This document shows positions 6,001 through 9,000 of a stretch of 46,690 nt of DNA, one piece after another. The first letter of the stretch is position 1. Each line of letters starts with the position of its first letter. Position numbers: made by a program. Source of the DNA: a virus (Duplodnaviria; Heunggongvirae; Uroviricota; Caudoviricetes); the IMG/VR virus record IMGVR_UViG_2718218402_000006; one strand, 5' to 3'.

Positions 6001-9000
6001 AACCATCCGGGACCGTCTGGTCGCAGTACTGCCCGATGGCATACAGCGCCCACTTGTCAACATCCGCCGCCACCAGACGTTTTCCCATGCCGTAGCGCGG
6101 GTGAGTCAGCATGTCCCACAGGCACCAGGCCGGGTTGTTGCTGTATGCCGGTTTCAGGCTGCCGTCCCAGATGCCGCTGTACGTGCGTTTTTCCGGGTCA
6201 TAGTTTGACGGTACCTGGATGATGCGACCGCGGATATGGTAGTTCACCGTCATCTGCTGACCGCCAAACTGCTCCGCATCCACCTGCAGCCCCACAATGG
6301 CCGTGTTCGGGTAGCACTGTTTCACATCGATGATTTCGGTGTATGACGACCAGAGCGTCTTATTCTGCAGCTGGTCCGTGGTGCTGTCCGCCGTCTCCCT
6401 GACCATCCGGATGTTAAAGGGCCGGGGCGGCAGATTATCCAGAATCACCGACGCCAGGAACTGCGAGGTGGTCTTGCCGTTAATGGTGACATCCTTTTCC
6501 GTCATCCATTTACCACCACGCTCAAGCTGAATCAGCAGGCGGACAGACGTCGGGTTACGGTCACCCTTTGAGGTGGTCTCCACCAGTGACTGCACCCCGA
6601 AGGTAACCCGCAGGCGGTCAATGTTCGCGGACGTAATGGTGCGCGTCACCGGCTTTGCCTTCGTCACTTCCACGCCCAGTCCGGTTTCAGCTCCGGAGGA
6701 CTCAAAGCCTTCCGGTGGTGTCTGCTCCTGCTCCCCGGCACGCCAGACCGCAGTCACACCGTGTATCACGGGATTACCGTCCGTGTCCGTCAGCGGGGTT
6801 TTGTTCACCAGGATACTCTGCAGCCCCTTCACCGGGCCTTCTATCGGTCCCTCACCAATCGCATCAATCACACTCATCATCTGCGTGGATTTGAGATTAT
6901 CCTTCGCCTCTCGAGGCGTGTGCGCCCTGCCGCCACCTTTGCCCATAATGTTCCTCTCAATTGGTATTATTAATCGCAGTGATAGGATATTGCACAGCTA
7001 TTGCGCGATATCATCAGAACGCTGTTTGTTACCCTGTAACCAGCAAGCTCAGTCTGTTAACGGAATTAATGAGGGTTTTATGAAATGTAAAATCATTGCT
7101 GCCATTGCCATGCTGACAGCAGCATCATGCGGATACGCAGCAGAACAGGAAGTCCCAATGAACCTTGTCAGTGCTGACGGAAAAGAAGTCAGCATTGGAA
7201 AAATAACCATTCAGGAGACCCCCTACGGTCTGCTGTTCACACCAGCCCTTCACTCTCTGTCTGAAGGCATTCATGGTTTTCATGTGCACGAAAAAGGAAA
7301 TTGCGCCCCGGCACTGAAAGACGGAAAACCGGTCGCAGCATTATCGGCTGGCGGTCACTTTGACCCGAAAAACACCGGCAAACATCTTGGCCCCTGGTCT
7401 CCGGATGGACACCTGGGCGACCTCCCTGCGCTGTTCGTGACGCATGACGGAAAAGCGAACTACCCGGTCCTGGCCCCGAGACTGAACTCATTAAAAGAGA
7501 TTAAAGGGCGTTCTCTCATGCTTCATGCTGGCGGTGATAACCATCATGACCATCCGGAGCCCCTGGGCGGTGGTGGTGCGAGAATGGCCTGCGGCATCAT
7601 TCAATAATCAGTCAGGTAAGGGGCGGGCCCCTTACCTTTATTCCTCAGGACGATAAATCCTTTCTCCCTGAAAAGAACGGCACATCCTCCCTCTCTGAGT
7701 TAATGTTTTTGTCGTGACATAAGAATAATTCCTTACACTCAATCTTCGTAACGCTCCCGCAGTTCCTGTCCGTGAGCACTGCGGGATTTTTTCGCTTTTA
7801 TGCCTGCCGCCCGATAACCACCACCTTCCCGTCACCGCCTTCATCACGGGTACTGATGTCCTGGGATATACGGCGGGAGCCAACCAGCATTTCCCCGTAA
7901 GGCACCGGCATCGGGTTACCCTGGGCAATCATGTTGTCCAGTGACGAAAAGTACGTGTTCTGTCTGCCGTTATCCGTTGCGCGGTAATCCGGTGTTTTTG
8001 CCTTCGGGGCCAGCATCTGGGCCACACCACCCAGTATCATGCTGGCTCCAAGTGAAAACAGCATCGTGGTGGCAGAAAAACCACCGGCTGCCAGGGCTGA
8101 ACCCCATAACGCCATCGTTGCGCCGGCGGTGAAGAAAGAGCCCACGATGGCTGCCGCCCCCAGCACAATCTGCAGTCCACCCTTTCCGGCCCCGGCCAGT
8201 CGCGGCACAATGTGGATGACCGTTCCCTCACCCAGCTGTTCGTGAAGACGGGCGTACACCGCCTCCGGTGCCGTGTCATCACCGGCAATACGTATCTGGT
8301 ACCAGCCTTCGTTCATCTGACGGCGGAATCCGGGCACCTGTAACGACAGCGCCCGGATGGCTTCCGCTGCCGTGTTCACATACAGGCTGAGGCGGCGGCC
8401 AAATCGTTGTAAATCCCCGTGAAGGCAGATGCGTGCCAGTGGCGGTGACGCCAGACAGAATGCGTTCGTCGTTGCCATTTTTCGGAATACCTCTCCCGTT
8501 TACTCAGTTGTTCAGGCAGATGGTGAAGCAGCTCACCGTTGCCGCAGTAAATGGCGGCATGATTGGCCACCGATGCGCCAAAGCAGCACAGCAGGATATC
8601 GCCCGCCTGTGCAGAGGACAGGGGCACCCGGTAAAAGCCCGTTGCCTCCATATTGTCCAGGTACAGGTTCTGACCGTTGCGCCACCACTCATCCTCACGG
8701 TGAAAATCCGGCATCTCAATCCCCGCCAGATGGTATGCATCCCGGAACAGGGTGTAACAGTCCGTCACCCCGTGTTCAAAGCGCCGTCCGGTCAGGTGCG
8801 GAACGCAGCGGAATTTGTGAATGTCACCCCGGCTGACCAGCCACCAGGGCAGTGCGCTTTTTATCTGCAGCCGCCGGTCAGCCTCGCTCAGCCAGGGCAG
8901 ACCACCGGGATGACTGTGAACCAGCGCCACAATCTCCCCCTGCATCTCTGCCCGCAGCCAGTCTTCCGGTGCGATACGAAAATACGCCTCCGGCTCTGCG

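Follow-up and report, generated by a model that had tools for sequence, protein, structure and literature searches.

Results

An antisense sodC gene lies between tail genes J and I

We analyzed a 46,690-nt stretch of an Escherichia coli lambdoid prophage (IMG/VR record IMGVR_UViG_2718218402_000006), referred to below as the window; all positions are given in whole-window numbering. Within it, tail genes J and I, both encoded on the minus strand, are separated by an 851-bp spacer occupying exactly positions 6947–7797, from the start codon of J (ATG, 6946–6944, minus strand) to the stop codon of I (7800–7798, minus strand). The corresponding gap in phage lambda is only 60 bp. The spacer carries sodC, a gene for a Cu,Zn superoxide dismutase (SOD) of 175 amino acids, whose coding sequence (7080–7607) lies on the plus strand. 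Since J, I, K, and L are all on the minus strand, the antisense placement of sodC between I and J, proposed earlier from the sequence alone (the sequence-only reading), holds.

J (3473–6946, minus strand, 1157 amino acids) is the tail tip, or host-specificity, gene, as judged from its open reading frame (ORF), seven J-specific Pfam domains, and the gpJ annotation in the closest genome; it is the downstream late gene that has to be reached across the spacer. I (7798–8379, minus strand), the tail assembly gene, was assigned by a match to Pfam Lambda_tail_I (E = 5.6e-16) and by RefSeq coordinates in the closest genome, and a longer ORF for it reaches to 8478. It is the upstream late gene and is convergent with sodC. 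Pfam searches place K (JAB and NlpC/P60 domains) and L upstream of I on the same strand, which also carries the collinear antiterminator, holin, lysozyme, terminase, head, and tail genes. Both the tail-gene neighborhood and the identity of sodC are far beyond chance.

The encoded protein is an intact Cu,Zn SOD with an export leader

The product of sodC matches Pfam Sod_Cu (PF00080) over profile positions 3–133 of 133 (E = 3.9e-32; 111.9 bits against a cutoff of 28.9), the NCBIfam SodC equivalog NF007628 (218.4 bits against a cutoff of 165), and PHROG 1975, “superoxide dismutase precursor,” in the moron category (E = 9.5e-97). Solved bacterial SodC structures in the PDB were matched with a best E value of 8.8e-63, and identity to bacterial SodCs, some of them with solved structures, is 60–69%.

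To this we added an active-site alignment with human SOD1, the chromosomal SodC of E. coli, SodCIII of Fels-1, SodCI of Gifsy-2, and two other E. coli variants; the chromosomal sequence used was checked and found identical to PDB 1ESO. The Cu ligands H68, H70, H93, and H149 are intact and correspond to H46, H48, H63, and H120 of human SOD1. Likewise intact are the Zn ligands H93, H102, H111, and D114 (H63, H71, H80, and D83 in human SOD1), the catalytic R168 (R143), and the disulfide pair C75-C171 (C57 and C146). All ligands also align with those of E. coli SodC 1ESO. With an intact frame, the profile matches, and every defining residue present, the earlier description of a complete Cu,Zn SOD gene is borne out; a loss of metal-binding histidines, which had been named as the observation that would speak against it, is not seen in the alignment, where every ligand is conserved.

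Residues 1–20 read as a hydrophobic export leader in front of the mature domain. The leader contains a lipobox, AASC, at residues 14–17 (7119–7130), and a signal peptidase I site follows residue 20. This reading agrees with the LipoP analysis and fractionation reported in PMC2569942. The product had been called periplasmic: the export leader fits this, but a purely soluble protein does not agree with the lipobox and with the partitioning between periplasm and membrane described in that work.

The gene is SodC-F of enterohemorrhagic E. coli prophages

The sodC gene of the window is the published and routinely annotated SodC-F1/F2 of enterohemorrhagic E. coli (EHEC) prophages; it is already known and ordinary. 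SodC-F1 and SodC-F2 were described in prophages CP-933R and CP-933V of E. coli O157:H7 EDL933 (D’Orazio et al. 2008, PMC2569942), as the same gene in the same I-J slot and the same orientation, with the same AASC lipobox and the same signal peptidase I site after residue 20. In the EDL933 copy that we compared, the whole 851-bp spacer is identical to that of the window save for one base, at 7414. The T/C difference at this position leads to an L112P replacement next to Zn ligands H111 and D114; the window allele encodes Leu112, which is nearly invariant among 22 SodCs. SodC-F1 and SodC-F2 themselves are one residue apart (PMC2569942).

The prophage around the EDL933 copy differs in its mosaic make-up. 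A sharp mosaic boundary coincides with the J start codon: window positions 6781–6946 and positions 2202–2367 of the EDL933 locus (L008), that is, the 5′ end of J, show ~14 differences in 166 positions, against one in the adjoining 851-bp spacer. Unlike the EDL933 prophages, the window prophage adjoins potC; its cargo includes NleB, Paa, and a PerC-family protein.

The properties of SodC-F are documented in PMC2569942. The EDL933 phage enzyme is dimeric, with an activity of 19,380 U/mg, and exceeds the monomeric chromosomal SodC both in activity (~3-fold) and in stability. The epitope-tagged protein accumulates in uninduced cultures in logarithmic phase, in stationary phase, and anaerobically, and it splits between periplasm and membrane owing to the lipobox. 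Its abundance relative to chromosomal SodC is increased in bacteria recovered from Caco-2 cells, and sodC mutants show raised sensitivity to H2O2.

The gene is also widespread. Many genomes of Shiga toxin–producing E. coli (STEC), among them O103:H2 strain 12009, contain a stretch 100% identical to a 951-bp query comprising the spacer and both gene ends; in these genomes, sodC is annotated between “tail assembly protein” and gpJ. Of 5426 complete E. coli genomes, 693 contain the sodC coding sequence, in up to four copies each, and in 540 the identity is ≥99%. Only two records of the phage collection, both Shiga toxin (Stx) 2a phages, contain the window cassette; in more than 100 other Stx phages, the similarity is confined to the 106 bp next to I.

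Borders and signals of the sodC cassette

The borders of the inserted DNA were set by comparison with the sodC-less Stx2c phage Stx2c_PV98-693 (locus L002). Homology between the two ends at the J ATG (6946) and restarts at 7692. The 745 bp in between (6947–7691, sodC on the plus strand) are absent from the Stx2c phage and stand in place of 131 unrelated bp. GC content is 0.46–0.50 across much of this cassette (its 5′ part and spacer), compared to ~0.60 in J, I, and K. A repeat search revealed no flanking direct or inverted repeats suggestive of transposition. Additional DNA that separates genes lying side by side in relatives, with its own terminator and a distinct GC content, is a textbook moron. 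The moron concept reportedly goes back to Juhala and Hendrix in 2000. Like lambda lom and bor, the sodC unit, with its distinct base composition, would be an autonomous promoter-ORF-terminator unit expressed from the prophage. Most classic morons are co-oriented with the late operon; the window sodC, as the Salmonella sodC genes, is antisense to it.

Two diverged copies of the unit helped to delimit its functional parts. One, 82% identical at the nucleotide level, lies outside any prophage on the 103-kb plasmid pE600055_103 (locus L007, 4709–5528), where it keeps a ~100-bp remnant of the J 5′ end amid insertion sequence (IS) fragments. The other, 76% identical, is found in a chromosomal island of strain P19_598 (locus L006, 5001–5525), next to IS5 and the phosphorothioation-dependent restriction genes dptFGH; copies of this type occur in ~130 genomes. 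At the protein level, the diverged copies are 80–84% identical. Since their homology with the window extends from the J ATG to just past the hairpin of terminator T1 (see below), near 7655, the unit moves as promoter region, gene, and terminator.

A Shine-Dalgarno sequence, GAGGG (7071–7075, plus strand), is located 4 nt before the sodC ATG and has the counterparts GGG in the plasmid copy and AGG in the island copy; the gene thus has a ribosome binding site of its own, as had been suggested. Downstream of the gene, terminator T1 (7614–7645, plus strand) consists of a 10-bp GC-rich stem with a 4-nt loop (hairpin at 7614–7637; dG of −17.4 kcal/mol, z of −2.2), followed on the plus strand by UUUAUUCCUC. 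In the 82% and 76% copies, base changes on one side of the stem are matched by changes on the other (GGGG/CCCC, GGAG/CTCC, and GGGA/TCCC). The maintenance of the stem by such compensatory changes is good evidence that T1 is functional, and this covarying hairpin also supports the claim that sodC has its own terminator. On the minus strand, no U-run follows the T1 hairpin.

The cassette is followed by a 106-bp segment (7692–7797), next to I, that belongs to the resident I-J slot: it is ~99% common to more than 100 sodC-less Stx1a, Stx2a, and Stx2c phages. Its end is formed by a further plus-strand terminator, T2, with a stem at 7755–7763/7778–7786 and a run of six U at 7787–7792 (dG of −15.9, z of −3.2; 0 of 200 shuffles as stable), which abuts the I stop codon. 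T2 gives a backstop against antisense transcription into I. A minus-strand terminator-like site at 7323–7304 was discarded, being at the chance level of the scan. Rfam had no match either in the spacer or in the sodC-less slot.

The promoter region of sodC

A 299-bp fragment upstream of the EDL933 copy drives lacZ expression independently of RpoS (PMC2569942). The 133 intergenic base pairs of this fragment are identical to the window, and its J-coding remainder contains ~14 differences. On this published functional evidence, we place the sodC promoter within 6947–7079.

The best candidate is an extended −10 element, TGgTATTAT (6962–6970, plus strand), which was the top hit of the position weight matrix (PWM) scan. 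It is located 16–24 bp from the J start codon and directed away from J. The TGn motif with a −10-like hexamer is kept in the two diverged copies, where its counterparts are TGaTATGAT and TGcCATAAT. The runner-up, TTGGTA-16-TAGGAT (6961–6988), loses its −10 element in the diverged copies (TAGTCA). For this reason we prefer TGgTATTAT, without confidence.

Other motifs in the region were set aside. A conserved TATCAT (7009–7014) has neither a −35 element nor a TG and is kept only as an alternative. The palindrome GTTAC-N3-GTAAC (7026–7038) and a possible PhoP-box–like TGTTTG are not conserved in the other copies and are taken as chance occurrences.

Relationship to other sodC genes

The chromosomal SodC of E. 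coli (PDB 1ESO) has the same fold and the same active site as the window protein. In the comparison with the chromosomal gene that the sequence-only reading had recommended, protein identity was 58–62%, all ligands aligned, and similarity was undetectable by blastn. Chromosomal SodC is a monomer whose synthesis depends on RpoS and is limited to stationary phase; the phage enzyme, by contrast, is a dimer and does not depend on RpoS (PMC2569942).

Two Salmonella prophages offer parallels. In Fels-1, sodCIII (STM0924) lies antisense between gpI and gpJ homologs, as here; SodCIII is, however, only 60–66% identical to the window protein, and the Fels-1 spacers show no recognizable nucleotide homology up- or downstream, the downstream one being 53 bp compared to 190 bp here. 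In Gifsy-2, sodCI (STM1044) is, again as here, an antisense independent unit inside the tail block; it is an established virulence factor and is under PhoPQ regulation. Its slot is different, between a lom-like gene and L, and its product is 59–62% identical to the window protein.

In a neighbor-joining tree (154 columns, 200 bootstraps), the window protein grouped with the plasmid and island variants at 100% bootstrap. Gifsy-2 SodCI fell apart from this clade, with proteins of Yersinia, Brenneria, and Edwardsiella (97% bootstrap); the placement of Fels-1 SodCIII was unsupported by bootstrap. Lying in another slot and belonging to another lineage, the window SodC is not an ortholog of Gifsy-2 SodCI. 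From these comparisons, the phage sodC is not a copy of the host’s own gene, and SodCI is a separate acquisition. No donor was found: a scan of species-representative genomes yielded only chromosomal SodCs at ≤69% identity, the closest being those of Serratia, Pragia, Leminorella, and a Pseudomonas isolate (62–69%).

The sodC-less version of the I-J slot

In Stx2c_PV98-693 (L002, 2868–3110), a plus-strand σ70-like promoter, TTCACA-16-AATAAT (10 of 12 matches), stands before the 106-bp segment and ends 1–2 nt ahead of the homology break. The full 243-bp sodC-less module is present in 34 phage records. Judged by its sequence, it looks like a gene for a ~100-nt small RNA (sRNA) on the strand opposite to the late operon. 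The promoter of this resident module is missing from the window, where the sodC cassette stands in its place.

The sodC-less locus also contains, on the late strand, a canonical terminator-like hairpin (L002, 2911–2934, minus strand) with a 10-bp stem and then TGTTTTTGTG; it precedes the J start by ~45 nt. With this hairpin before J, late transcripts would need antitermination to reach J in the Stx2c phage too.

The literature on prophage sRNAs of EHEC and enteropathogenic E. coli (AgvB/AsxR, Pas) makes no mention of sodC or the I-J slot. It places the sRNA sites near Q, PR′, and the lysis genes, with Pas hits additionally counted as lying within 10 kbp of capsid or tail genes.

Other features of the prophage

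Comparison with the closest annotated genome revealed an NleB-family type III secretion effector at the tail-fiber end (1–981), a Lom/Ail outer-membrane protein (2807–3406), a PerC-family regulator near the terminase genes (23939–24253), and a Paa adhesin beside hokD (about 33200–34000). The integrase end of the prophage abuts potC. Rfam matches at gathering level were obtained for three RNAs: STnc100 sRNA (29106–29278, minus strand), sok antitoxin RNA next to hokD (34847–34996, minus strand), and DicF sRNA upstream of dicB (42105–42156, plus strand).

Discussion

Taken together, the data make it very probable that sodC is part of a lysogenic-conversion moron, a self-contained ~745-bp unit that sits in the I-J slot opposite to the Q-dependent late operon. 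While the prophage is repressed, sodC would be expressed independently, by transcription starting in the 133 bp before its ATG, convergent with I and divergent from J. Transcription would end at T1 (7614–7637), with the resident T2 (7755–7792) as a backstop before I. The product would be an exported Cu,Zn SOD, in part soluble in the periplasm and in part lipid-anchored via Cys17, which would remove extracytoplasmic superoxide and so benefit the lysogen. Upon induction, Q-modified RNA polymerase arriving from I would have to cross the 851-bp spacer, and with it sodC in antisense, before reaching J. From the operon layout we infer that late transcription reads through sodC in the antisense direction: in the lambda model there is one Q-antiterminated late transcript, and J would therefore be reachable only via the spacer. 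In keeping with this, a strict σ70 consensus scan of positions 6800–7950 detected no minus-strand promoter.

Several points weigh against this reading. The strict scan yielded no plus-strand promoter either, and 22.8% of shuffles equal the PWM score of the extended −10 candidate TGgTATTAT, so that the promoter prediction proposed earlier for the region upstream of sodC returned nothing by strict consensus and, at 6962–6970, a candidate whose score is often reached by chance. Since the U-tract of T1 (UUUAUUCC) is weak, some read-through to T2 is likely. Deletion of both chromosomal and phage copies of sodC gave no additive effect (PMC2569942), and the E. coli evidence consists of H2O2 killing in vitro and abundance in bacteria from Caco-2 cells, from which a role in vivo is extrapolated. 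The sequence-only reading had placed sodC in the defense of the lysogen against the oxidative burst. Expression in lysogens and resistance to H2O2 are supported by the published copy, which differs by one base; protection from the phagocyte oxidative burst and virulence in vivo are not.

We regard it as improbable that the I-J slot is a dedicated landing pad for antisense elements, in which the sodC cassette displaced an sRNA promoter and the old sRNA body now forms the distal 3′ region of those sodC transcripts that read through T1. If this were true, sodC mRNA could yield a regulatory RNA derived from its 3′ untranslated region, or the act of transcribing sodC could tune late read-through from I to J and the expression of J.

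More doubtful still is a cassette that is mainly cis-regulatory, in which J is slowed or timed by head-on sodC transcription or by pairing of sodC mRNA with the late I-J transcript, and the SOD is secondary. The geometry would permit it: sodC is convergent with I, and the candidate promoter is 16–24 bp from the J start. The sodC-less slot also holds an antisense module with a plus-strand promoter and a terminator, as well as a late-strand terminator-like hairpin before J; since the version without sodC carries an antisense module too, the slot seems to attract such elements. Yet there is no direct evidence for regulation of this kind, and Q-modified polymerase is known to override terminators. 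Conservation is clear at the protein level, with all ligands kept and the diverged copies 80–84% identical, and related copies are found outside tail operons, next to dptFGH and on a plasmid, which shows that the unit is selected for its product.

Auxiliary metabolic genes do occur in phages, and the category of PHROG 1975 is “moron, auxiliary metabolic gene and host takeover,” but a role of sodC as a lytic-cycle auxiliary gene that protects the infected cell, rather than one expressed in the lysogen, is highly improbable: sodC runs opposite to the only late transcript, and the epitope-tagged protein accumulates in uninduced cultures (PMC2569942). Although many EHEC prophages are defective and nearby cargo in related genomes is often pseudogenized (nleH, nleC, and tail-fiber-assembly fragments), we give practically no credence to the idea that sodC is an inactive relic, a mere passenger in a defective prophage, given its intact frame, the presence of every catalytic residue, its occurrence in ~540 genomes at ≥99% identity, and the activity of the near-identical (L112P) EDL933 enzyme at 19,380 U/mg (PMC2569942).

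The lysogenic-conversion moron remains the preferred reading. The gene, its location, regulation, and biochemistry have been published and the locus is annotated automatically; the finding is already known and raises no new question. Our analysis adds a little to this: it fixes the exact borders of the cassette, shows covariation in its terminator, and reveals that the promoter of a resident antisense module gave way to the cassette.

Phage-borne sodC is a classic case of lysogenic conversion. Through it, pathogenic Salmonella, and probably EHEC, gain a periplasmic SOD that is more active and more stable than the chromosomal enzyme. In the prophage studied here, sodC adds one virulence or fitness cargo gene to an inventory that includes NleB, Lom/Ail, Paa, and the PerC-family regulator.

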